Shown: positions 2,312 to 63,281, counted from the stretch's first letter. The stretch is 64,000 nt of DNA from Alphaproteobacteria bacterium (GCA_031555055.1 JAVBUT010000004.1:13741-77740), one strand, 5' to 3'. Made by a program: numbers and translations. Notes: a model not told the origin generated them from the sequence alone.

Positions 2312-3949
2312 ATGACATTGATACAAAACAAATCTTTTCTGTTAAGTTTTTGCAAGACAGCCATTGGTTCATTTTTTGTTTTTCATTCTTCATTTTTTGT
2401 TTGTTCGCCGGCAGATGCCGCTATTCGCGTTGGGAACCAATCCCGCACTAATGCCGCCGCGTACCAGCAACTGAATCTGATGCAACAGGCCGCGTATAAC
2501 CAGGCCGTCGCACCGGCTGGCGTCAATGTTGATGACCTGGCTGTGCGCGTCGCGAACACCGATCTGGCGGAAAAAATCGCACGCGGTGATACTTCGATTG
2601 ATGTTAATAATGCGACATTGGAATCTTGCGCCGCAATTTATCCGACCGGACAATTCGCATGGGATGTGCCGACCGCCGGAACCAAAAAGGGTGGGGCGGC
2701 GACTTGCGTTGCGGTTGTTGAACTGCGCCAGGTCAAAGGAACCCAGGATATAGTTCTGGCGCGCGCAAATTTGGCGGCCGGCGACGCAATGGATTGCAAT
2801 ATCAATAATTTCCCGGAATCAGGATACACAGTTGACGCGGGTAATTTTGTATTTCCGGCGGATCGTGCGCCGACTGTTGACGACGTGATCAGCGTCATGA
2901 ACGACGAACAAAAAAAGAACGCCGGATTTAAAATCGCGGCGGGTACGGTTCTGGGCGGTGTCGGCGGAAATCTGTTAACGAAAAAAGATATAACCACCGG
3001 TAAAAAAGACGCGGGCACCACGGTTGTCGGCGCGCTGACGGGTGCGGCGATCATGGCGGGCAGTTCTTATGCAGGCAAGGTCGGCGGTGATATGATTCTG
3101 TCTTCTGGCGTCAATGCGGCGGCGGGCGCGGCGGTTGGCAATATTGTCGGCGGTGGCGAATCCGTATTGCGTATCGAAGACTGTATTGTGAATGATTCGA
3201 AAACAACATGTCTGTGGGGCGTGATCGAAGAAAGTAAAAAGTTGAACGGTGGCACCGCATACTATAATGTCGGTACCGGGGCGACCGCGGTTTGCAAAAC
3301 CAACGCGGTCGAAAGTTGCGAAAAAACGCGCCTGATCGCGATAAAGTTCGCAAATCCGTCCGACGCGGCCAAAGACAAGTCGCTGGAAGAAGCAATATCT
3401 GAACCGGCGTTTTTCAAAAATATTTCCAAAAGATTTACACTGGATGAACAGCATAATAAAATGACGCCCGGCGGTGAAGAATGGATCGAAATCAAATCCG
3501 CAGGAACCCCCGGTGATCGCACGCCGGCCATGATTTCCGGTATCAGCGACAAGACGTTTGGCCTGAAAATGAAAGACTGGTACAAAATTCGCGGAACAAT
3601 TACCGAAGGCCAACTGGCGGCGCGCAAATCCGACGGCAGCTCTTATAAGCTGGATGACAAGAAAAAATGGAATGTTAACGACTTTTATCCGATGACCGTT
3701 GACGCAACCGACGGCGGCATAATCGACATCAATAACAAGGCACGCATGTCAGGCACGCTGATCGGGGCGGGCGCAGGCGCGGGATTGGGCGCGTTCACCG
3801 CGTACCAGGGCGCGACCGAAGAAATTGACGCGCGATGGGTGTCGTCTGTCCAGGAATACAAAGATTCGTTGCAAAAGGTTTATTGCGGAACCGGCACGCG
3901 TTTTCTGTCGCAATACAACAGTCTGACCGTAATTCCAAATATGCAATAA
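2312..3949 (+). CDS. Hypothetical secreted or membrane protein with Gly/Ala-rich hydrophobic segments
   Basis: 545-aa ORF with a hydrophobic N-terminus (...FFVCSPADAA). Contains Gly-rich stretches (GTVLGGVGGNLL, GAAIMAGSSYAG, LIGAGAGAGLGAF). I recognise no family. Confidence 0.6.
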   Translation: MTLIQNKSFLLSFCKTAIGSFFVFHSSFFVCSPADAAIRVGNQSRTNAAAYQQLNLMQQAAYNQAVAPAGVNVDDLAVRVANTDLAEKIARGDTSIDVNNATLESCAAIYPTGQFAWDVPTAGTKKGGAATCVAVVELRQVKGTQDIVLARANLAAGDAMDCNINNFPESGYTVDAGNFVFPADRAPTVDDVISVMNDEQKKNAGFKIAAGTVLGGVGGNLLTKKDITTGKKDAGTTVVGALTGAAIMAGSSYAGKVGGDMILSSGVNAAAGAAVGNIVGGGESVLRIEDCIVNDSKTTCLWGVIEESKKLNGGTAYYNVGTGATAVCKTNAVESCEKTRLIAIKFANPSDAAKDKSLEEAISEPAFFKNISKRFTLDEQHNKMTPGGEEWIEIKSAGTPGDRTPAMISGISDKTFGLKMKDWYKIRGTITEGQLAARKSDGSSYKLDDKKKWNVNDFYPMTVDATDGGIIDINNKARMSGTLIGAGAGAGLGAFTAYQGATEEIDARWVSSVQEYKDSLQKVYCGTGTRFLSQYNSLTVIPNMQ

Positions 3950-8981: not shown

Positions 8982-9680
8982 ATGCGAATTGCAAATAATA
9001 AAAAACAACGTCAGCCAAGGTTAAATACGACCCTGTCTGCCAAGGGACAGGTCAAAGCATCTAAAGCCAATTTGCAAAGCACACTGGTGCGTCAGCAGAA
9101 AAGACTGAAATCACAGGATATGGACGATGAAAGCGCGGAAAAGGTAAAGCGGGTCATAAAGGAAGTTCAAGAATCGCTAAGTGGCGAAAAGACTTGTGTT
9201 GGTGCAAGAAAAATTACCCGCGGACATTCCGTTGATGGTGAACGGCTATTGGCTATGCTGGGCCGGGACAAAATGAAGAAAAACAATGATCTGATCGCGC
9301 GTCTAGAAACTACAATGACAGATCAGTCAGCCGCAGGCTTGTTCGAAAAACTTATTGAAACAGCCGAAGATTTTGTCGAAAGAAATCCGGCTGCGACTGA
9401 ACTAAGAGATATTATCAAACAGGCAAAACCGATTTGCAAAGCGCGTCTGGATGACCAAAGGGCAAGACAAAAATCAGCAACCAAATCCAATTCCAAAGAA
9501 TTTGGAGAAACATTTAAAGAGTGGAGAAAATCCGAAAGGCATAAAAGTGAATTGGCCGCCAGAAAACAAAGACGCGAACAATTAAAGCAAGCCGCTAATG
9601 CTCTTGTCACAGCCAAGGTGTTTGACGCAAAAACCGGAAAATACAAATCCAAACGTGTAAATGTGGGGAATATAAAATGA
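8982..9680 (+). CDS. Hypothetical Lys/Arg/Gln-rich protein
   Basis: 232-aa ORF whose stop overlaps the lgt start by 4 nt (ATGA), which suggests translational coupling. I recognise no family. Confidence 0.55.
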   Translation: MRIANNKKQRQPRLNTTLSAKGQVKASKANLQSTLVRQQKRLKSQDMDDESAEKVKRVIKEVQESLSGEKTCVGARKITRGHSVDGERLLAMLGRDKMKKNNDLIARLETTMTDQSAAGLFEKLIETAEDFVERNPAATELRDIIKQAKPICKARLDDQRARQKSATKSNSKEFGETFKEWRKSERHKSELAARKQRREQLKQAANALVTAKVFDAKTGKYKSKRVNVGNIK

Positions 9681-10555
9681 TATTGATTGATCCTATTTCG
9701 CCGGTTGCATTTTCGATTTTTGGCTTTGATATACGCTGGTATGCGCTGGCCTATATCGCGGCCTTTGTCATCGGATTCTGGATGTTTAGACGTATGGTTT
9801 CATCTAAAGGTTCTGTTGCCTCTCACCCCGCTTGCGGGGGGAGTGACCGCAAATCGGTCAAGGGGGGCGAAAACACCACAATCACCCTTTCCAAAAAACA
9901 ATTCGAAGACCTGTTTACGGCGGTGATACTGGGGGTCATAATCGGTGGCCGGTTGGGATATGTTCTGTTTTACAATCTGTCGTTTTTTATTGCGCATCCG
10001 CTGGAAATACTTGCGGTGTGGCACGGCGGAATGTCTTTTCACGGCGGAATGATCGGAACCATTGTTGCGATACTGTTGTTTGCGCGCAAGAATAACGAAC
10101 ATGGATCGCCCGCACGTTACGCCTTGTCGATCATGGACGTCGCCGCGGTCTGTGCGCCGATCGGATTGTTTTTCGGACGCATTGCGAACTTTATAAATAT
10201 GGAGGTAATGGGCCGCGTAACAGACAAACCCTGGGGTGTTGTATTCAACGGCACCGGCGATGTTGCGCCACGCCACCCCAGCCCATTGTACGAAGCCGCG
10301 CTTGAAGGTGTCCTGTTATTCGTAATAATGTTCTGTTTGTGGAAATTCACAAAGCTGAAAAAATATCCGGGCGCGCTGTCCGGAATGGCGGCCATGCTGT
10401 ACGCGGTGTTCCGCATATTCTGTGAACAATTTCGCGCACCCGATGCCCAGATCGGATTTCTGACCAGCTGGGGCCTGACCATGGGCCAGTTACTGTCGGG
10501 TCTGATGTTTGCGGCCGGATTGGTAGTATTTCTGGTTGTTATTCGGAAAAAATAA
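9677..10555 (+). CDS. lgt: Prolipoprotein diacylglyceryl transferase
   Basis: GGRLGYVLFYN, HGGMSFHGGMIG, GRIANFINMEVMG, PRHPSPLYEA and FRAPDAQ are Lgt signature blocks. Compared with E. coli Lgt as I recall it, there is about 20 aa extra after the first TM helix. Confidence 0.93.
   Translation: MILIDPISPVAFSIFGFDIRWYALAYIAAFVIGFWMFRRMVSSKGSVASHPACGGSDRKSVKGGENTTITLSKKQFEDLFTAVILGVIIGGRLGYVLFYNLSFFIAHPLEILAVWHGGMSFHGGMIGTIVAILLFARKNNEHGSPARYALSIMDVAAVCAPIGLFFGRIANFINMEVMGRVTDKPWGVVFNGTGDVAPRHPSPLYEAALEGVLLFVIMFCLWKFTKLKKYPGALSGMAAMLYAVFRIFCEQFRAPDAQIGFLTSWGLTMGQLLSGLMFAAGLVVFLVVIRKK
9820..9871 (-). repeat. G/C-rich palindromic unit inserted in-frame in lgt
   Basis: ctctcaccccgcttgcggggggagtgaccgcaaatcggtcaaggggggcgaa. 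Its reverse complement aligns with the units at 37826..37889, 37904..37976 and 62822..62880. Confidence 0.7.
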
Positions 10556-31176: not shown

Positions 31177-31280
31177 TGATAGATTCCGATATTTCTAGGT
31201 GCGCATTTTTGTGCGAGAGAAAATAAAACCCTCCCCGTTTTTTGGCGGTGCAAAAAAACACCCCTCCGTCAGAGGGGAAT

Positions 31281-35914: not shown

Positions 35915-37720
35915 TTATTTTTTCTTTTTTTCTTTAAATTGAATATCGCGCAGCTTTTTATATTCACCGTCCAGTTTTACCAGTTCGGCGTCTGTGCCAC
36001 GTTCGACAATTTGCCCATCCTTGATCACACAGATCAGGTCGGCATCCAATATGGTTGATAATCTGTGCGCGATAACGAATGTCGTGCGGCCACGCATCAG
36101 GTCGCGCAATGCGGCCTGGATCAGCTTTTCACTGTTTGTGTCCAGCGCCGATGTTGCTTCATCCAATAACAATATAGGCGCGTCTTTCAATATCGCGCGC
36201 GCGATTGCGATGCGCTGTTTTTGGCCACCAGACAGCAATGATCCGCGTTCGCCGACATTGTTATTATATTTTTTTGGGAACTTTATGATAAACTCATGCG
36301 CGTTGGCAGCGCGTGCAGCGGCTTCGACTTGCTCTTTGGTTGCATTTGGCGCGCCGTATTTTATGTTGTCGGCGATCGTGCCATTGAACAGAAAAACATC
36401 CTGGGAAACTTCGGCGATATTCCGGCGCAATGAGGCCAGCGTATATTTCTTGATATTGGTACCATTTATATCAACATGCCCATGCTGGGGGTCATAAAAT
36501 CTTTCCAACAGGTTGAACATTGTGGTCTTGCCGCCGCCGGATGGCCCGACCAGCGCGCATACCGCGCCCGCAGGAACCGTCAGGTTGACATCGCGCAGGA
36601 CCGGTTCGTCCGGATTATACGCAAATATAATACTGTCGAATTCTATGGACATTTTGCCACGTTTAAGTTCTTTTGCGTTTGGCGCGTCAACGATGTCCGG
36701 CTTGCTGTCCAGGAAATCAAACAAGACTTCGGCCGCCAGCAATCCGTGCTGGACCGTATTCCCAGTGCCGGTGATGTTTTTTGCAGGCTTGTACGCCGCG
36801 GTCAGCGCCAACAAGAACGCCACAAAGTCACCCATGGAAATCGTGCCGTTGATAATAAATGTACCGCCAACGACCAGCGCCATCGCCAAGCCGATCGAAA
36901 TCATGATTTCCAGCAACGGCGACTGTAATGCGCCTGCCTGGGTGTTCTTATAAGAATTGCGTACAGAATCACCCAGAACGCGCCCGAATTTTTCCGTCTC
37001 GGACCCTTCGGTCGCAAATGCCTGGATGGTTTTTATTCCGTGCAGAGTTTGGTTTAAGTGCTGGGATACACTGTTGGCAATGCCAAAGGACTCGCGTGAC
37101 AGACGACGCTTTTTCCGCATGATCAGAACCATCGGAACCATTATCGCCGGCACCAGGAATAACAGAACCGCGCACATCTGGGGCGCATAATAAATCATAA
37201 TGCCCAACGTGATGATCAGTGTCGCGATATTCTGGACTACGTCAATAATCGTGTTGGTAACCAGGGACAGTACGGCGTTCGCCTGGACCGTGAAATAGTT
37301 CAAATTTTTGCCGATGCCGTCGCCATAGAACTTTGACACATTCATATGGACCATGTGTTCATAAATACGCTTTTGCAGGCCGGCGTGCGCGGACAGCCCC
37401 GCCTTGGCCATGGTCAAAGATTTTGCATAGCTGAAAATACCTTTGGCGCCGAACGCCGCGATAATCTGCAGCCCCAGCATGTACATGGAATGTATGTTCT
37501 TTTCGATGAATGTGCGATCGACAACCTTTTGTACGATTGTGATTGTGTATCCTTCGGCGCCCGCGGCGGCGATGGTGCACAAAACCCCCGCCAGCAGCCA
37601 TTTCCAATAAGGTTTGCCGATTTCGCGCCAAATACGGCCATACAGCGACCATTTGATACGCGCATTTTTTTCATCGCCCCGAAACAGGGATTTAATCTTT
37701 TTGGATATTTTCTTAAACAT
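35915..37720 (-). CDS. ABC transporter, fused permease/ATPase (MsbA-like lipid exporter)
   Basis: Six N-terminal TM helices. Walker A GPSGGGKTT, signature LSGGQKQRIAIARA, Walker B ILLLDEATSALD and the H-loop IAHRLST. Confidence 0.9.
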   Translation of the reverse strand: MFKKISKKIKSLFRGDEKNARIKWSLYGRIWREIGKPYWKWLLAGVLCTIAAAGAEGYTITIVQKVVDRTFIEKNIHSMYMLGLQIIAAFGAKGIFSYAKSLTMAKAGLSAHAGLQKRIYEHMVHMNVSKFYGDGIGKNLNYFTVQANAVLSLVTNTIIDVVQNIATLIITLGIMIYYAPQMCAVLLFLVPAIMVPMVLIMRKKRRLSRESFGIANSVSQHLNQTLHGIKTIQAFATEGSETEKFGRVLGDSVRNSYKNTQAGALQSPLLEIMISIGLAMALVVGGTFIINGTISMGDFVAFLLALTAAYKPAKNITGTGNTVQHGLLAAEVLFDFLDSKPDIVDAPNAKELKRGKMSIEFDSIIFAYNPDEPVLRDVNLTVPAGAVCALVGPSGGGKTTMFNLLERFYDPQHGHVDINGTNIKKYTLASLRRNIAEVSQDVFLFNGTIADNIKYGAPNATKEQVEAAARAANAHEFIIKFPKKYNNNVGERGSLLSGGQKQRIAIARAILKDAPILLLDEATSALDTNSEKLIQAALRDLMRGRTTFVIAHRLSTILDADLICVIKDGQIVERGTDAELVKLDGEYKKLRDIQFKEKKKK

Positions 37721-37735
37721 GGTGATTATTATAAG

Positions 37736-37770
37736 CAGTCAATAGTAATTAGTCAATAGTCGATAGTGGG
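37736..37770. repeat. Heptanucleotide tandem array (cagtcaa tagtaat tagtcaa tagtcga tagtggg)
   Basis: 7-nt periodicity, intergenic, directly upstream of the ABC transporter start. Confidence 0.7.
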
Positions 37771-37805
37771 TTAGTGCATAGTTGGTTAAAAAGCACAGAA
37801 CTAAT

Positions 37806-37980
37806 ACCCCCCCCTTGAGCTCAGTTCTAATTACTCCCCCCTTGAGGGGGAGTCGGCGCGCGAGTTTGCGTGCCGGTGGGGGGGGTATAGTTTCAAATTA
37901 TAATTATCCCCCCCCCACCGCATCGCTGCGATAACAGCAGCTCTGCGACTCCCCCTCAAGGGGGGAGTAATTAGACCCCA
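37806..37980. repeat. Inverted pair of G/C-rich palindromic units
   Basis: tctaattactccccccttgagggggagtcg (37826..) and cgactccccctcaaggggggagtaattaga (..37976) are reverse complements. Each half also carries a poly-C/G block, ccggtggggggggtata and tatcccccccccaccg. Same unit as in lgt and the RlmD-like gene. Confidence 0.85.
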
Positions 37981-38009: not shown

Positions 38010-38038
38010 TTGACATTTGTTACAAATATGTATAGAAT
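38010..38038 (+). promoter_or_regulatory. Sigma70-type promoter of tRNA-Ala
   Basis: TTGACA, 17-nt spacer, TAGAAT. The -10 element ends 11 nt before the tRNA. Confidence 0.7.
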
Positions 38039-38049
38039 TCGTTCACTTT

Positions 38050-38125
38050 GGGGATATAGCTCAGTTGGTAGAGCGCCTGCTTTGCAAGCAGGATGTCGCA
38101 GGTTCGAGTCCTGTTATCTCCACCA
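38050..38125 (+). tRNA. tRNA-Ala (anticodon UGC)
   Basis: Acceptor GGGGATA/TATCTCC includes the G3:U70 identity pair. Anticodon arm CCTGC-TTTGCAA-GCAGG, T loop TTCGAGT, encoded CCA. Confidence 0.95.
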
Positions 38126-38243
38126 CCAATTTTCGTTATCGGCGGTGCCGATTAAGAAAATTGAGTGCCCACCGAAGCCCGCAGGGCGAAGGTCGGGCGG
38201 ATCAATAAATACAAATACAAACGGTAAAGGGGGTGACAAACCC

Positions 38244-46036: not shown

Positions 46037-46648
46037 CTATTGAGATATCCCGATAATAACCAAAGGGACCGCCGGTGTATTTCTTCCCTGTCTTATAACG
46101 TTATATACTTCGCCTTCGTAATAAGCAACACCGGACGACATATTTTGAGAAAGCTCTTTCATCGGTAAGATTTCAATTCCTACGTCAATTTTATTTCCAA
46201 TATAAAAAGCCATATGTTTTACAAAAAGGTCATATGCCACGAAAGAATACTTTCCAAACTGAACTTCTATAGCAACTCGCTCTTTAACAAAATCTGTTTG
46301 ATTATACGTAAATAGTGCGGTTTTTCCAGCGGCTTCGATAATTTCTTTCTGTTGTTTTGCATCTAATGTAAGAGTTTCTCGGGCTAGTTTTACATCAGCA
46401 GTTACATAATACTGGGTTCTGGATTCCTCCCACCCTTTTTCTTCCAATTGTTTTTTGAACTCATTATTCATATCAATAGGACTAAATAATATTTTTCCTG
46501 CTTTTGTTTTCTCTTTTGAAATTTTTGTTTTGCATTTTTCAGCATCGATATTTTCAATAATTGCTGTAATTTCTTTCCAAATATGAGGCAAATGTACTTG
46601 TATGTACTCCATTCCATTTAAATGCGAATATATTTCTTTTATTTTCAT
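46037..46648 (-). CDS. Type II restriction endonuclease, BglII/BstYI-like
   Basis: ERVAIEVQFGKYSFVAYDLFVKHMAF and ILPMKELSQNMSSGVAYYEG resemble BglII ...TLVEVQFSNYPFLLNN... and ...ITKGHMFPASNSSLYYEQ as I recall them. The N-terminal IWKEITAIIENI and KILFSPIDMNNEFKKQLEEKGW resemble BglII LWKEIEETLLKM and SLIFDPVGTNQYIKDELVPKHW. The preferred start MKIKEIY gives a TAATG overlap with the methylase stop; an alternative start is at 46675. Confidence 0.7.
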   Translation of the reverse strand: MKIKEIYSHLNGMEYIQVHLPHIWKEITAIIENIDAEKCKTKISKEKTKAGKILFSPIDMNNEFKKQLEEKGWEESRTQYYVTADVKLARETLTLDAKQQKEIIEAAGKTALFTYNQTDFVKERVAIEVQFGKYSFVAYDLFVKHMAFYIGNKIDVGIEILPMKELSQNMSSGVAYYEGEVYNVIRQGRNTPAVPLVIIGISQ

Positions 46649-47580
46649 TAAGCTGTCCTTTTTTCTTTTATCCATTCAATGGGAAACTTGGCTGCGGTTT
46701 CATTTTTTGGGGTATGTATTGGTGTTCCGATTTTCCTTGTTTTTAGCTTTCCGTCAAGTTCTGCTTTAATTCTTTCTTTGCCTATATTGATATATTCCTG
46801 TATTTTATCCACGCCAAATGCTTTTCTATTATGGCGGACAGCGGCAATTAATGATGAAGCAACGCCGGCATATGGATCATATACAATATCATTTTCATTT
46901 GTTAAGGCGAGAACACAGCGCTCAACCAATTCGACGGGAAATTGACAGGGGTGAGGTGTTTTTTCTGGATGATTTGATTTTACATTTGGAATTTCCCAAC
47001 ATTCAGAAGCCCATTCGTTCGACATAAATTCCCAAAAATCAGATGGATTTTTGCCATTTGGATTACCAGACAATTGTCCCTTTTTGTGTCCCTTGTAATG
47101 TTTTTTTCCAGGATACTTTGATGGGATTCTAACGCTATCTAAATTAAATGTATAATTATCTGATTTTGTGAACCATAATATGGTTTCGTACCTTCCGGAG
47201 AATCGCTTGCTGGCATGGAGCCCATGGCCAAAGTGCCAGATCATTCTGTTCCTTAGCTTCATCCCTAGGTCCTTGAATATTTCATAATAATAAATATCCA
47301 ATGGAAACACTTCTCCTTTATCAATATAATTTCCCACTTGCCAACAAATACTTCCCGTGGGGGACAATACCCGAATTAGCTCTTTTATAAGCTTTTCTTG
47401 CGTTTTTAGATATTCTTGAATTGAAACTCGCGTTTCATAAGATTTCCCGATATTATATGGAGGTGATGTGATAATTAGTTCAACAGAGTTGGACGGTAGC
47501 TTTTTTGTAAACTCCAAAGAGTCGTTTTTTTCTAAAACGATAATAGAAGAAGGTTTGTATTTATTATCAACGGATTTCAT
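46648..47580 (-). CDS. DNA methyltransferase, beta class (N4-cytosine or N6-adenine), SPPY motif
   Basis: Catalytic motif IV IITSPPYNIGKSY precedes the AdoMet motif I IVYDPYAGVASSLIAA (beta-class order). 310 aa. Confidence 0.88.
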   Translation of the reverse strand: MKSVDNKYKPSSIIVLEKNDSLEFTKKLPSNSVELIITSPPYNIGKSYETRVSIQEYLKTQEKLIKELIRVLSPTGSICWQVGNYIDKGEVFPLDIYYYEIFKDLGMKLRNRMIWHFGHGLHASKRFSGRYETILWFTKSDNYTFNLDSVRIPSKYPGKKHYKGHKKGQLSGNPNGKNPSDFWEFMSNEWASECWEIPNVKSNHPEKTPHPCQFPVELVERCVLALTNENDIVYDPYAGVASSLIAAVRHNRKAFGVDKIQEYINIGKERIKAELDGKLKTRKIGTPIHTPKNETAAKFPIEWIKEKRTA

Positions 47581-47897: not shown

Positions 47898-48117
47898 GCG
47901 GTTTTTTGGGTATGGTGTTGTTTTTTATTTTACCCTTTCGCGCCCCTGGGGCAAAGGGGAATTGATGACGTTAGTAGGGGCGCATATTTGCGCCCTGGGC
48001 TTATGCACAATACGCCCATACAATTTTGCCCCCCCACCGCAAACGTGGTGAGGTGCGATGGAGCGAAGTTGTAATAATTTCATAGATTTTTAAAAGATAA
48101 TGGATTATAATCGGTGG

Positions 48118-51175: not shown

Positions 51176-51291
51176 ATTTATCCCTCTTTTATTAATCTAT
51201 GTGTAAATATAGGCCAATATTTATATTTGTCAATATATTTTTTAACTTTTTATATATTTACAGTCTGCGAAAAAACGTTAATAATAACGGC

Positions 51292-53949
51292 ATGTTTAAG
51301 CCAAACGATATTGTGAAAGTCTTGATTCCGAATGTTGCCAGTTCGGGGTATGACTATCGTTTGAACGAATCTGCGGAAATTGGCGCGTTTGTGCGCGTAT
51401 CCGTCATGAACAGGCCATATGTCGGCGTGATCATCGGCGCCGGCGACAGCGGTCTGGGACCGGAAAAAATCAAGAATGTCCAAGAAGTTATCAAATGGGC
51501 GCCGGGACTGTCGGCCGCGGACATGCTGTGGATTTCAAAAATGTCAGAATGGACGATGATGCCGATGGGCGCGGTTCTGCGCCTGATTGTTAATGTCCCG
51601 GATGCGTTTTTACAGCCAAAACAGGAACAACTGTATTCCGTGGCACTGGGCGAAGATATTCGAATGACCAATGGGCGCCAGTTGGTTCTGGACGCGTTTG
51701 CGTCGAATGATAACGAACCGATGTCCGTGTCGGATATTCAAAATATCGCACATGTCAGCGCTGCGGTGGTTAACACTATGATTCGGGCGGGTGCACTGGC
51801 CGCAGTGGCGACCAGAAATCAGGAATCAGTAATCAGGGATCAGTATAATTATTTCGATACAGGTTCTGTAAAATTAAACGACGAGCAACAGCGTGCCGCG
51901 GATGAGATATCGGCAGGTTTTGGTTCCCCTCTGGAAGAGGGGTGCCCGCAGGGCGGGGTGTCGATTAAGAAATTACCAGAAAATCCTGACTTAAAAGAAC
52001 GTGCAAAAGAATTGCGTAAAGCCGGCAGTCTTCCTGAAGCATTGCTGTGGCCCGAAATAAGCGGAAAAAAGATTAATGGGCTAAATTTTGACCGACAAAA
52101 AGTTATCGGAAATTATATAGTTGATTTCTTTTGCCCAACGAAAAACGTCGTAATAGAAATTGATGATGCGGCGACCCATGATTATAAGGGAAAGTATGAT
52201 GAAAAACGTGATAATTTCTTAAAAAAATTAGGTTTAACAATTATTCGTTTTTCGGCAAAAGAAATTTTAAAGGAAATGAATGAGGTTGTTGAATTTTTAA
52301 AACGACACCCCGCCCTGCGGGCACCCCTCTGCCAGAGGGGAACCGATACGTTCCAGGTTTATGTTCTGGACGGTATAACCGGATCGGGCAAGACCCAGGT
52401 GTATTTTGATTCCGTCTTGCGCGCGTACCAGAATGGAAAATCGGTTTTGCTGATGATGCCGGAAATCGCGCTGACTGCGCAATTCATGCACCGATTTGAA
52501 AAACGTTTCGGCGCCAAGCCGGTTGTATGGCACAGCAATCTGACCGCGGCGCGCCGACGTGAGATTTGGCGCGGTGTGGCGCGCGGCGATATTCGCATTA
52601 TTGTCGGAACGCGCAGTGCACTGTTTCTGCCGTGGCAGAATCTGGGTCTGGTTGTTGTTGATGAAGAACATGATGGATCGTACAAACAGGAAGACATGGG
52701 AAATTACCATGCGCGCGACATGGCGATACTGCGCGCGGCGATCGCAGGTTTTCCGATAGTGCTGGCCAGTGCGACGCCGTCGGCGGAAACGATGAAAAAT
52801 ATTCATGCGGGCAAATATAAGTGTCTGCGTCTGACTTCGCGTTTTGGTGGCGCGACATTGCCGCACGTCGAAACAATCGACATGCGCAAAGAGAAATGTG
52901 AGGAGTATAAATTGTCGCATCTCACCCCCACAGGGGGGCAGACGTGCCTCGGGCATTTGTCGCCAACATTATGCGATGCGATTGCGGAAACGCTGCATGA
53001 TAAAAAACAGGTCATGCTGTTTATAAATCGTCGCGGATTCGCGCCGATCGTGCAATGCAAAAAATGCGGATGGGCCGCGCAATGCCCGGACTGCAGTGTG
53101 GGCATGGTTTATCATAAAGGAATCAGAAACCAGGAACCAGGAACCAGTAAATTATTATGCCATATCTGTGGACATACTGAACCGTTGCCGAAAAAATGTC
53201 CGGACTGTGGCGGTGAAATTTCAACGCGCGGAATGGGTCTGGAAAAAATCCAGGAAGAAGTGAACGCAAAATTTCCACATGCGAAAACGGCGTTGGTGTC
53301 ATCTGACACCATGATGTCGCGCCAGGCGTTGGAACGGCTGGTGTCGCAGATGGAATCCGGTGAAATAGACATTGTCATCGGGACCCAAATTCTGGCCAAG
53401 GGACACCACTTTCCGAATCTGACGCTGGTCGGTGTCGTTGACGCGGACATGGGGCTGTTCGGATCGGATTTTCGTGCGGGTGAACATACGTTCCAACAAT
53501 TGTTCCAGGTTGCCGGCCGTGCCGGACGCGGCGAACATCATGGGCGCGTCATGCTGCAGACGTATCAGCCGGAACACCCGGTTATGCGCGCGATATGCGC
53601 AGGTGACCGCGACACGTTTATGGCGAATGATATGGAATCGCGTCGGATTGCAAAAATGCCGCCGTACGGAAACCTGATCGCACTGATCGTCGAATGCGAA
53701 AAAGAAAACATCTTGCAGGAATATTGCAAAAATCTGTCGGCGGTGGCGCCCGTGCTGGCTGGTGGCAAAATCATGGGGCCGATCATGGCCCAGCTGTACC
53801 AGGTCAGAAACTGGTATCGAATGCGGTTTTTGGTGTCGGGGGACGAACGCGCAAATCTGCAGCCGGTCGTGCGCGCGTGGATCGCCAAGATAAAGCAGCC
53901 CGCCAGCGTGCGCGTAAAGATCGATGTGGCGCCGCAAAGCTTTATGTGA
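51292..53949 (+). CDS. priA: Primosomal replication-restart helicase PriA carrying in-frame insertions
   Basis: Start MFKPNDIVKVLIP (ATG 51292). LNDEQQRAADEI, Walker A LDGITGSGKTQVY, DEEHDGSYKQ, the zinc-binding CKKCGW..CPDC...CHICGH...CPDCGG, and C-terminal blocks. Without the 141-aa insert the length (about 744 aa) is typical for PriA. Confidence 0.92.
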   Translation: MFKPNDIVKVLIPNVASSGYDYRLNESAEIGAFVRVSVMNRPYVGVIIGAGDSGLGPEKIKNVQEVIKWAPGLSAADMLWISKMSEWTMMPMGAVLRLIVNVPDAFLQPKQEQLYSVALGEDIRMTNGRQLVLDAFASNDNEPMSVSDIQNIAHVSAAVVNTMIRAGALAAVATRNQESVIRDQYNYFDTGSVKLNDEQQRAADEISAGFGSPLEEGCPQGGVSIKKLPENPDLKERAKELRKAGSLPEALLWPEISGKKINGLNFDRQKVIGNYIVDFFCPTKNVVIEIDDAATHDYKGKYDEKRDNFLKKLGLTIIRFSAKEILKEMNEVVEFLKRHPALRAPLCQRGTDTFQVYVLDGITGSGKTQVYFDSVLRAYQNGKSVLLMMPEIALTAQFMHRFEKRFGAKPVVWHSNLTAARRREIWRGVARGDIRIIVGTRSALFLPWQNLGLVVVDEEHDGSYKQEDMGNYHARDMAILRAAIAGFPIVLASATPSAETMKNIHAGKYKCLRLTSRFGGATLPHVETIDMRKEKCEEYKLSHLTPTGGQTCLGHLSPTLCDAIAETLHDKKQVMLFINRRGFAPIVQCKKCGWAAQCPDCSVGMVYHKGIRNQEPGTSKLLCHICGHTEPLPKKCPDCGGEISTRGMGLEKIQEEVNAKFPHAKTALVSSDTMMSRQALERLVSQMESGEIDIVIGTQILAKGHHFPNLTLVGVVDADMGLFGSDFRAGEHTFQQLFQVAGRAGRGEHHGRVMLQTYQPEHPVMRAICAGDRDTFMANDMESRRIAKMPPYGNLIALIVECEKENILQEYCKNLSAVAPVLAGGKIMGPIMAQLYQVRNWYRMRFLVSGDERANLQPVVRAWIAKIKQPASVRVKIDVAPQSFM
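51813..51847 (+). repeat. Heptanucleotide array in the priA coding sequence (cagaaat caggaat cagtaat cagggat cagtata)
   Basis: 7-nt periodicity, encoding ...RNQESVIRDQY... Confidence 0.7.
51922..52344 (+). mobile_element. 423-bp DUF559 (Vsr-like endonuclease) cassette with 42-bp terminal inverted repeats, inserted in-frame in priA
   Basis: The left end ggttcccctctggaagaggggtgcccgcagggcggggtgtcg (51922..51963) matches the reverse complement of the right end (52303..52344) at 41/42 positions. 423 = 141 codons, and the element starts on a codon boundary. The interior encodes ...AKELRKAGSLPEALLWPEISGKKINGLNFDRQKVIGNYIVDFFCPTKNVVIEIDDAATHDYKGKYDEKRDNFLKKLGLTIIRFSAKEI..., matching the DUF559 pattern. 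Confidence 0.85.
52921..52940 (+). repeat. Mini G/C palindrome inside the priA coding sequence
   Basis: ctcaccccc-aca-ggggggca resembles the ctcacccc...gggggg core of the unit in lgt. It encodes ...HLTPTGGQT... in a region that looks like an extra loop. Confidence 0.5.
53124..53151 (+). repeat. Heptanucleotide array in the priA zinc-finger region (cagaaac caggaac caggaac cagtaaa)
   Basis: Encodes GIRNQEPGTS between the two Cys pairs. The E. coli PriA sequence I recall is about 7 aa shorter here. Confidence 0.65.
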
Positions 53950-62267: not shown

Positions 62268-63281
62268 ATGAAACAATGTCCATTATTTAACAAGTGTGGC
62301 GGATGCAGATTCGATTTTTCGTCCGATGATTATCGCGAATCAAAATTAAAATTATTGCATGGTTTGCCGATTACAAATGATCCGGTTTGGATTGATACTG
62401 GCAATCGCCGGCGCGGCGACTTTGCGTTCTGTGACGGCGTGTTCGGATTCTTTGAACGCGGCACCAAGAATGTGATTCCGGTTCGAAATTGCCCGGCCAT
62501 GACCGATGCGGTTAATAAAATATTGCCGAATGTCGCCACTATGCCGTGGACCGGCGCCGGCAGCGTTTTGATCACGGAATGCGCGAACGGAATCGATATT
62601 GCGGTGACGTCCGCCGTGCCGTATTTTACATCCGAATTTAAAAAGGCCGCGGATAAATCATCGGCGATACGCATAACATGGAATGGTAAAGTTGTATCAC
62701 AAACCGTGGCGCCAATCATCAGGTTTGGCGACGTAATCGTACCGTATCCAGCGAACGCGTTTCTGCAGCCGAGTGTTGCAGGTGAAAACGCATTGCGAGA
62801 TTTGGTTGTCTGTGCTGCAACTATACCCCCCACCGACGCACGAAACAGTGCCGTCGACTCCCCCGCAGGGGGGGAGTTTATTCATAAGAAAAAAATTGCG
62901 GATTTGTTTTGCGGTCTGGGCGCATTTACGTTTGCATTAAATGCGGATGGTTTTGATATTGATGTGGGTGACAGTGCGTCTGTCGCACGTCCGGGAATGT
63001 TTACCGTGCGCGATTTATTCAAGAAACCGCTGATGGTTCAGAATTTAAAGAAATACGATTGCGTTGTTATGGACCCGCCGCGCGCGGGTGCAATGGAACA
63101 AAGCAAAGAATTGGCAAAATCAGATGTTCCGCGCATTGTGTATGTATCGTGCAATGCGGACACTTTTATGCGCGATTTGGAAATCTTGAAACGTGGCGGA
63201 TATCGCATGACTGCATTGACCCCGGTGGATCAGTTCGTTGGCACAGCGCACTGGGAACTGGTCGGTGTGTTTGAAAAATAA
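62268..63281 (+). CDS. RNA (uracil-5)-methyltransferase, RlmD/TrmA family, without TRAM domain
   Basis: N-terminal CPLFNKCGGCRF Fe-S cluster motif, AdoMet motif DLFCGLGAFT, VVMDPPRAG and the catalytic YVSCNADTFMRDL. Carries an in-frame G/C palindromic unit just before motif I. Confidence 0.82.
   Translation: MKQCPLFNKCGGCRFDFSSDDYRESKLKLLHGLPITNDPVWIDTGNRRRGDFAFCDGVFGFFERGTKNVIPVRNCPAMTDAVNKILPNVATMPWTGAGSVLITECANGIDIAVTSAVPYFTSEFKKAADKSSAIRITWNGKVVSQTVAPIIRFGDVIVPYPANAFLQPSVAGENALRDLVVCAATIPPTDARNSAVDSPAGGEFIHKKKIADLFCGLGAFTFALNADGFDIDVGDSASVARPGMFTVRDLFKKPLMVQNLKKYDCVVMDPPRAGAMEQSKELAKSDVPRIVYVSCNADTFMRDLEILKRGGYRMTALTPVDQFVGTAHWELVGVFEK
62822..62880 (+). repeat. G/C-rich palindromic unit inserted in-frame in the methyltransferase gene
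   Basis: tataccccccaccgacgcacgaaacagtgccgtcgactcccccgcagggggggagttta aligns with 37904..37976 (tatcccccccccaccgcatcg...gcgactccccctcaaggggggagtaatta). Confidence 0.8.

Follow-up and report, generated by a model that had tools for sequence, protein, structure and literature searches.

A gene-less G/C-rich hairpin doublet of an alphaproteobacterium belongs to a cross-phylum repeat family that is linked to DUF559 nuclease genes

The subject of this study is a pair of inverted, G/C-rich palindromic units at positions 37826-37975 of a 64,000-nucleotide stretch of DNA from an alphaproteobacterium (GCA_031555055.1 JAVBUT010000004.1:13741-77740), which is referred to as the window throughout. We favour, with modest confidence, the interpretation that this doublet is a complete non-autonomous selfish element with hairpin ends. 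It would resemble the REPINs, the paired form of REP (repetitive extragenic palindromic) sequences, and its partner would be a nuclease of the DUF559 family and not a tyrosine transposase. The gene-carrying relatives of the doublet hold a DUF559 nuclease of ~110-130 aa (Vsr-like, PD-(D/E)xK fold), the gene of which lies between or among ends of the kinds seen in the doublet.

The doublet is gene-less and arranged head-to-head, with a left unit in reverse orientation, a 22-nt AT-rich spacer and a right unit in forward orientation. Each unit is ~60-65 nt long and comprises three modules, namely (T)A-C6-9-ACC, a first hairpin (P1) that is 20-29 nt long and a second hairpin (P2). In the window doublet P2 reads GACTCCCCC-TCAA-GGGGGGAGT and is followed by AATTA, while its general form is GACTCCCCC-NNNN-GGGGGGAGT. 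The two units meet at their C/G runs, with the spacer TATAGTTTCAAATTATAATTAT (37886-37907) between them. In unit B (37829-37886, minus strand) P2 occupies 37833-37853, P1 37854-37875 and the G-run, which is the C-run of the minus strand, 37878-37885. In unit A (37908-37972, plus strand) the C-run is found at 37908-37916, P1 at 37919-37947 and P2 at 37948-37968; the base of this P1, CGCATC...TCTGCG, is typical of the beta-type units described below. An inverted-repeat search of the window confirmed the original prediction, made from the sequence alone, that two units face each other with reverse-complementary outer 30 nt: the exact arms are 37826-37855 and 37946-37975 and are 100% complementary. 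An inner pair of arms (37874-37892 and 37902-37920, 19 nt) is 89% complementary. The single-stranded DNA fold of the whole 150-nt element reaches -63.9 kcal/mol (z=-14.6), and the RNA fold of each unit consists of P1 and P2 with a z of about -5 (-5.1 for unit A as well as for unit B). The P1 hairpins of the two units differ in sequence and both fold. Since they are not copies of each other and yet are both paired, the ends are expected to act in the folded state, as single-stranded DNA or as a cruciform.

The doublet is intergenic and lies between the gene of an ABC transporter (35915-37720, minus strand) and a tRNA-Ala gene (38050-38125). It is flanked by two promoter-like sites which are divergent and intact outside the doublet (37756-37728 on the minus strand and 38010-38038 on the plus strand). 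The doublet is therefore situated upstream of both sites and not at the 3' end of any gene, and no terminator-like site was found at it. This position, together with intragenic copies in either orientation, argues for a selfish element that acts at the DNA level and not for a regulatory site of the host.

Further copies within the window were sought with a covariance model (R1), which was derived from 35 units of the short class, three of them the strong copies of the window itself, and was run on the window with filters off. Strong matches were obtained at 37829-37886 (minus, 65 bits), 37908-37972 (plus, 61 bits) and 62823-62881 (plus, 57 bits), all of which are in the training set. A match of 22 bits (E=0.002) at 37804-37857 on the plus strand combines an extra C8 run with the left hairpin of the doublet. 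The extra run and 27 nt in which the left end is partly duplicated (37804-37832, plus strand, direct-repeat family D1) make up a degenerate third unit that shares the hairpin of unit B. In lgt the model recognised a unit at 9817-9870 on the minus strand, with C-run, P1 and P2 all recognisable yet degraded (14.7 bits, E=0.1). At 48027-48079 on the plus strand (11 bits, E=0.7) the C-run-ACCG and the base of P1 are kept and P2 is lost; this weak, decayed fragment lies between tRNA-Asp and the gene gap, beside a restriction-modification island with a BglII-like enzyme. The model gave no match on 288 kb of unrelated metagenomic DNA except for L201, in which the sequence of the window has been assembled a second time. 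When up to two mismatches were allowed, the P2 pattern was found at three places in the window versus 0.00 expected in shuffles; as the hairpin is almost a palindrome, each of these places is matched on both strands.

By these scores the earlier count, at least four good copies, has to be corrected: three copies are good, one is degenerate, and one or two are fragments. The similarity goes beyond poly-C/G runs, as the entire three-module architecture recurs. The unit proposed in reverse orientation for lgt stands, but it is degenerate and no good copy. Of the two fragments that had been proposed, the one at 48027-48079 is retained as decayed. The other (52921-52940) was rejected as a family member: at 52926-52938 it is a generic C5/G6 hairpin, whose score of 8.5 bits (E=2.5) is indistinguishable from chance.

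The copy that had been placed in the RlmD-like gene is fully borne out. This solo unit, unit C (62823-62881, plus strand), lies in frame in the gene of an RlmD-like methyltransferase (62268-63281) and encodes ~20 extra residues starting TIPPTDARNSAVDSPAGGEF, six residues ahead of the S-adenosylmethionine-binding motif DLFCGLG. The RlmD-like protein comprises 337 aa versus ~307 aa for its closest relatives (64% identity, uncultured Rickettsiales and Alphaproteobacteria), and the segment encoded by unit C is missing from six of the seven aligned orthologues. The degenerate unit in lgt (9677-10555) is likewise in frame and coincides with residues 47-71 of Lgt, 25 aa which have no counterpart in the E. 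coli Lgt structure 5azb. By these alignments both copies are true in-frame insertions, and most likely they are solo units of the same family as the doublet. Intragenic copies occur in either orientation. The RlmD-like protein contains a second insert of 10 aa, VGDSASVARP (62961-62990), which is missing from all seven aligned orthologues. Its DNA, gtgggtgacagtgcgtctgtcgcacgtccg, forms a small palindrome (GTGCG/CGCAC, GACAG/CTGTC) and may be the remnant of another hairpin element.

Intragenic elements could also be imagined to be removed from the mRNA, in that the ends pair and DUF559 cuts in the manner of a splicing endonuclease, so that the host protein is made without the insert. The ends are indeed complementary and highly structured, tRNA-splicing endonucleases are among the enzymes with a PD-(D/E)xK fold (PMC3424549), and RAP proteins, which are Vsr-like, act on RNA (PMC11879112). 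However, all intragenic copies examined are in frame and free of stops in the frame of the host gene, which is required for translation and needless for splicing. Moreover, a solo unit lacks a second end with which it could pair, and neither a ligase nor a precedent in bacteria is known. We regard RNA removal as very improbable.

The same type of unit, called type I here, is widespread in other genomes. A scan with the exact P2 pattern, in which each bacterial or archaeal species was represented by one genome, revealed at least 120 loci holding at least 171 hairpins. The listed loci are from metagenome-assembled genomes (MAGs), with taxon labels taken from the record titles, of Nitrospinota, Nitrospirales, Acidobacteria, Gemmatimonadota, Latescibacterota, Binatia, Acidimicrobiia, Deferribacteraceae, Gammaproteobacteria, Alphaproteobacteria and Rickettsiales. 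Judging by the isolate names, many of them presumably come from sponge or termite-gut samples. Although the search specified P2 alone, an upstream C-run that continues with ACC(G/A) or a close variant, and hairpin P1 between this run and P2, are missing from no more than one or two of the 139 unique listed units whose middle is readable. In these 139 units the four closing pairs of P1 and its pairs 7-9 are paired in 84-100% (closing pairs 94-100%) with three to four pair types at each position. When the partner was slid by one position as a control, only 2-73% were paired, mostly less than 45%. In the alignment of the short class (A1) pairing extends to 96% of the cells, with a covariation score of 0.414 versus 0.10 in shuffles, none of 500 of which reached 0.414. 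About 70% of the listed units, essentially those with a long P1, keep a T-C/C-T internal loop at depth 4-5.

The arrangement of the units also resembles that in the window. The listed loci hold 33 head-to-head pairs of adjacent units, of which 21 have a centre of 10-49 nt, and 26 tail-to-tail pairs. The long-P1 units split into two types, alpha and beta, and all 35 classifiable pairs consist of one alpha and one beta unit (15/15 head-to-head pairs with short centre, 8/8 with long centre and 12/12 tail-to-tail pairs). The element therefore has two different ends, reminiscent of the Y/Z alternation in bacterial interspersed mosaic elements (BIMEs). Arrays of units are present in L118 and L205, while the window holds one doublet only. 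A search for target-site duplications at 21 doublets gave no consistent flanking direct repeat; the best matches were 0-5 nt long at varying offsets, and the inverted repeat reaches just 3-7 nt past P2. The target-site preference for which the original prediction had suggested a check was thus not detected at these doublets, neither as a duplication nor as a target motif.

About five of the six frames of a solo unit contain no stop codon, which is rarely true for doublets. Open frames read through 28% of the solo units (31/109) and 11% of the doublets, versus 74% and 60% of random control segments. The units are therefore depleted from genes and tolerated there as solo units, and the window shows the same pattern. 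Carriage by phages was considered and rejected, since the exact P2 has only two matches in 2.9 million viral contigs. A unit variant at L124 (3584-3649) consists of CCCGCCCCCG, then CATC...TCTGCG, then ACCCCGCC-GCAA-GGGCGG; its weak R1 score of 14.9 bits is a hint of end types beyond the two studied here.

The strong covariation of P1 would also be expected if the unit were an RNA or DNA structure selected by the host, for instance an mRNA stabiliser, an attenuator or a site for a nucleoid or repair protein, which spread because of its function. In line with this, loops favoured in RNA are present (GCAA or GCGA in P2 of alpha- and gammaproteobacterial copies, UNCG-like in P1 of the type II ends introduced below), and Vsr-like RAP domains bind RNA in mitochondria (PMC11879112). 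On the other hand, the doublet is upstream of both promoter-like sites and has no terminator-like site, other copies are inside coding sequence in either orientation, and no Rfam family corresponds to the unit. At the gathering threshold Rfam reported only the seven tRNAs in the window and nothing in five further loci. Permissive searches returned chance matches to miRNA-like hairpins and, as the best match, the whalefall-1 RNA motif (RF01762), which was rejected as its 13-15 bits in the window and L005 stay below the gathering threshold (37 bits). Sequences that are almost identical in unrelated phyla and absent at orthologous sites are better explained by horizontal selfish spread than by a host function of ancient origin, and we consider a host function improbable. 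Both host function and RNA removal are much less likely than the homing alternative discussed below. The earlier characterisation of the units as a proliferating element similar to MITEs (miniature transposable elements with inverted repeats) or to Rickettsia palindromic elements (RPEs), and not as a regulatory site, is thus supported by a multi-copy cross-phylum family, by the doublet between divergent promoter-like sites and by the in-frame inserts.

The link to DUF559 is a physical one. At L067 (Binatia) a reverse unit, a DUF559 open reading frame (ORF) and a forward unit follow each other in frame in an hsdS-like gene, with DUF559 between the G-run and the C-run. The nuclease gene is thus placed where gene-less doublets, such as that of the window, have their spacer. 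At L043 (Nitrospira) DUF559 is found at the same hsdS junction (...TPPQGGSD|WTVERA), and at L118, L043 and L095 it is flanked by units. In the independent 2.7-Mb contig of L205 DUF559 lies in a cluster of six units within 1 kb, and the remaining 5.5 kb hold no more strong units (>50 bits). Of the eight database relatives closest to the DUF559 clade of L205, seven carry the unit-encoded peptides ITPPLRGS, SPLEGES or LPLKGGV, mostly at both ends. The original prediction had proposed to look for a cognate Y1 transposase such as a REP-associated tyrosine transposase (RAYT), and DUF559 was found in its place: tblastn with E. coli K-12 RayT gave no match in the window and one in the 1.2 Mb of related loci (L134), which is not beside type I units, and tblastn with an approximate query of IS200 TnpA had no match in the window and none in linkage with units. 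In the literature that we found, neither the P2 sequence nor a link of DUF559 to inverted ends or mobility is mentioned beyond a table entry; a description elsewhere is possible. That entry reports the 'DUF559 domain-containing protein' as enriched, without explanation, among inverted-repeat-flanked genes in a screen for programmed inversions (PMC9881135). Fusions of DUF559 and of GIY-YIG to TrmJ-like methyltransferases were noted earlier (PMC1829167).

The window itself contains one DUF559 ORF, which belongs to a sister element with different ends. This element lies in frame in priA (51199-53949) and extends from 51922 to 52344 on the plus strand. Its inverted ends (51922-51963 and 52303-52344) are 42 nt long with one mismatch, and each folds into two G/C hairpins. 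PriA thereby carries a 142-aa insert just ahead of its Walker A motif, with the predicted junction peptide ...GSPLEEGCPQGGV..., and DUF559 is recognised by Pfam at aa 265-366 (E=6e-27). The DUF559 protein of PDB entry 3hrl aligns to aa 276-367 (E=1.4e-16). The solved PriA structures align only from aa 379 and lack the insert. The insert keeps the invariant D (VDF) and E (IEID) columns of the DUF559 family as well as an H at the nearly invariant H87. DUF559 genes at type I loci (clade A) are ~40% identical to it.

For the priA-type clade (clade B) 80 metagenomic DUF559 loci were fetched, 78 of them with enough flanking sequence. Flanking inverted repeats that score at least 40 were found at 62 of these 78 loci versus 1 of 62 displaced controls. 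The consensus of the left end, here termed type II, is AATTCCCCTCC-NNNN-GGAGGGGTG-[variable stem-loop]-GGGGTGGT. Type II ends share the architecture of type I, that is a C-block, a variable hairpin and a fixed hairpin, and the conserved C-terminal tail NHPALRAPLxGGE of the clade-B family is the translated end of the element. Head-to-head pairs of type II ends enclose a gene in 52 cases (gaps of 350-499 nt) and are gene-less in two, for loci that were selected for DUF559. As many as 31 of the 80 clade-B genes sit in frame inside longer ORFs, among them hsdR, hsdS, N6/N4 methylases, queA and fumarase C; no intein domain was matched by Pfam in these 31 copies. Nine hsdR loci share one insertion site just ahead of the Walker A motif, and queA is occupied at two sites. 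R1 detected no type I units at the clade-B loci and is thus blind to type II ends, and therefore each nuclease clade goes with its own end type.

Several further observations were made on the inserts. In priA, the RlmD-like gene and the nine hsdR loci (L134 and eight others) a glycine-rich nucleotide-binding motif follows 6-25 residues downstream of the insert, and the motifs in the three unrelated hosts are GITGSGKT, HTQGSGKS and DLFCGLG. Behind this position there could be a target preference, or the loop may just be a tolerant one. At L135 (~2900-3200) the ends of a DUF559 element are amplified in tandem, in frame in hsdR, with the peptide NHPAFQAPLQGRGM repeated at least six times. The left-end peptide NSPPLEGW...GVV is duplicated at other hsdR loci (L147, L158 and L166, upstream of 2501). 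In the hsdR gene of L158 (~2900-3100) a segment which by eye is GIY-YIG-like (FCVYAILCSNDAIYIGQTSDLRKRWKQH) follows in frame directly after the DUF559 insert, and this suggests a second small nuclease family with the same in-frame lifestyle.

It has to be asked whether DUF559 spreads the units or merely uses them. The units could be REP/REPIN-like repeats that are spread by another agent (an unlinked RAYT, some other enzyme, or errors of replication and recombination), and the DUF559 genes could be parasites similar to homing endonucleases which use the repeats as landing pads or homology arms. The clan of Vsr and DUF559 includes a proven homing endonuclease, I-Bth0305I (PMC3239194). The gene of L067 is exactly at the spacer position of the gene-less doublets, and gene-less type I doublets far outnumber gene-carrying ones. 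Insertion of DUF559 at the same site in nine hsdR loci and in hsdS of L067 and L043, as well as its recurrence in queA, also speaks for such homing. The lack of a linked RayT match in the window and beside the units does not suit this alternative, nor does the unfixed position of DUF559 among type I units, which misfits a single precise homing site. Furthermore, clade-B genes nearly always bring their own ends, as seen from the 52 pairs with and the two without a gene, with the reservation that the loci were selected for DUF559. The pairing of nuclease clades with end types is compatible with either explanation. Altogether, homing parasitism appears rather unlikely to us, while it is the most serious competitor.

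Several other points weigh against DUF559 as the partner of the doublet. Only five of the 120 listed type I loci contain a DUF559 gene, and its position varies between the head-to-head centre, a place between two reverse units and the tail-to-tail centre. The 64-kb window contains no DUF559 gene of clade A; its sole DUF559 is that of priA, with type II ends and ~40% identity to clade A, and hence the window offers no cognate nuclease for the 37.8-kb doublet. To our knowledge, a PD-(D/E)xK nuclease of ~110-130 aa has no strand-transfer activity with which a copy would be inserted. Besides, the type I loci were retrieved by the exact P2 pattern, so that the invariance of P2 is partly by construction, and the breadth of taxa relies on MAG labels that are record titles.

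If DUF559 is nevertheless the mobilising enzyme, as we favour, the folded ends would be recognised as single-stranded or cruciform DNA, a cognate DUF559 nuclease would act in trans and cut at the ends or at the target, and the element would be copied to new sites without duplication of the target. Landings that happen to be in frame in tolerant loops of proteins such as the RlmD-like protein and Lgt would survive and be translated as inserts of 18-25 aa, because solo units are so rarely interrupted by stops. A more general proposal, which we put forward tentatively and with less confidence than that for the doublet, is that DUF559 proteins are the enzymes of an unrecognised class of hairpin-ended elements. 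This class would cause no target duplication, parallel the RAYT/REPIN system by means of a PD-(D/E)xK nuclease, cross the borders of phyla, yield gene-less doublets and solo units, and insert in frame in priA, lgt, the rlmD-like gene, hsdR, hsdS, queA and fumC.

Some features in the neighbourhood of the doublet and elsewhere in the window deserve mention. A 14-nt tandem direct repeat (TAAGCAGTCAATAG / TAATTAGTCAATAG, 37732-37759) overlaps the promoter-like site of the ABC transporter gene on the minus strand. Between tRNA-Ala and rpsU, at 38144-38188 on the plus strand, there is a candidate for a decayed inner left end of a DUF559 element: GTGCCGATTAAGAAAA and CCCGCAGGGCG match the inner left end of the priA element with 15/16 and 12/12 nt (each E=0.16). 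The matches are suggestive only; if they mark a decayed element, at 170 nt from the doublet, the intergenic region would be a repeated landing place. A solo hairpin, CACCCCTCCGTCAGAGGGGAA, is located at 31259-31279 in an intergenic region near tRNA-Leu and resembles the outer hairpin of the priA element ends in 19 of 21 nt. A type II restriction-modification pair, in which the endonuclease is BglII-like and the partner is an N6/N4 DNA methylase, is encoded at 46037-47580 next to tRNA-Asp, and the decayed unit at 48027-48079 is just past this tRNA. The stretch from 44 to 48 kb has a GC content of 0.35-0.37, and the pair in this low-GC island was therefore probably acquired horizontally.

DUF559 proteins are currently annotated as 'endonuclease domain-containing' or 'very-short-patch-repair endonuclease'. 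If our interpretation is true, it would assign a concrete role to a large orphan family (>5,800 relatives at E<=1e-10) and add an independent partnership of enzyme and repeat to the REP/RAYT paradigm. Many apparent 'DUF559 fusion domains' of restriction enzymes, methylases, QueA, fumarase and PriA would then be mobile inserts, and protein segments such as TPPQGGS, SPLEGES and HPALRAPLxGGE would be translated repeat ends instead of protein motifs. It would also account for the enrichment of DUF559 among the inverted-repeat-flanked candidates for programmed inversion (PMC9881135). The elements place homopolymer runs of C6-C9 and G6-G7 in essential genes, which could be sites prone to frameshifts. 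Finally, the near-identical P2 and C-run across phyla could serve to trace horizontal exchange in communities that live with sponges and termites.

Several known systems share part of these characteristics. With the RPEs (reviewed in PMC10969869) the units of this Rickettsiales-like alphaproteobacterium share that they are small palindromic repeats without a transposase of their own, which lie in frame in housekeeping genes and are read through as an extra peptide. In contrast to the RPEs, which are ~150 bp long and restricted to Rickettsia, the present units are 60 nt long (150 nt for the doublet), G/C-rich and found in many phyla, and a linked nuclease gene exists for the family. Classical MITEs have terminal inverted repeats in common with the doublet, whose repeats are 30 nt long and perfect. 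Unlike in MITEs, there is no target-site duplication and no DDE-transposase parent, and the gene-carrying relatives hold DUF559 only; the element is therefore closer to a REPIN than to a classical MITE.

The Vsr-like EDxHD homing endonuclease I-Bth0305I has a nuclease fold of the same clan as the priA element, though not as the gene-less doublet, and behaves selfishly as well (PMC3239194). Homing endonucleases in general share the recurrent insertion site in homologous host genes of different samples, for which vertical inheritance is also possible. I-Bth0305I resides in a self-splicing group I intron and is equipped with NUMOD DNA-binding modules (PMC3239194). DUF559 elements, in contrast, have neither intron nor intein; they possess structured inverted ends, are translated within the host protein and have gene-less derivatives.

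IS200/IS605 elements and palindrome-associated transposable elements (PATEs) have two different subterminal hairpins, a small size and no target duplication, all of which is shared with the present element. These elements depend on the Y1 transposase TnpA and lack a terminal inverted repeat, whereas the two ends of the present element repeat each other in inverted form at P2, and they have no linked Y1 gene. The ends of IS200/IS605 and the REPs are believed to act in the folded state.

The closest concept for the window element is that of REPINs and REP-BIMEs with their RAYTs (PMC3116915 and PMC3337134, Bertels & Rainey 2011; PMC2817692, Nunvar et al. 2010). Like REPINs, the element consists of two inverted palindromic units with a short spacer (22 nt in the window, 10-49 nt in 21 listed pairs), its architecture implies the formation of hairpins in single-stranded DNA, and no target duplication was found. 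Clusters of alternating orientation with two alternating unit types are known from REP-BIMEs, and as in the RAYT/REPIN system a small gene is flanked by several units and each gene clade is tied to its own type of repeat (PMC3337134). Unlike in that system, the linked gene encodes a DUF559/Vsr-like PD-(D/E)xK nuclease and not a transposase of the HUH-Y1 type. The units are longer than those of REPINs (~60-65 nt) with two hairpins and a C-run, they are not strictly extragenic but lie in part in frame within genes (RlmD-like, lgt), and their sequence type is common to many phyla, while REPINs are confined within a genus. What is new in comparison to REPs and REPINs is thus the different partner enzyme, the unit of two hairpins, the spread across phyla and the insertion in frame.

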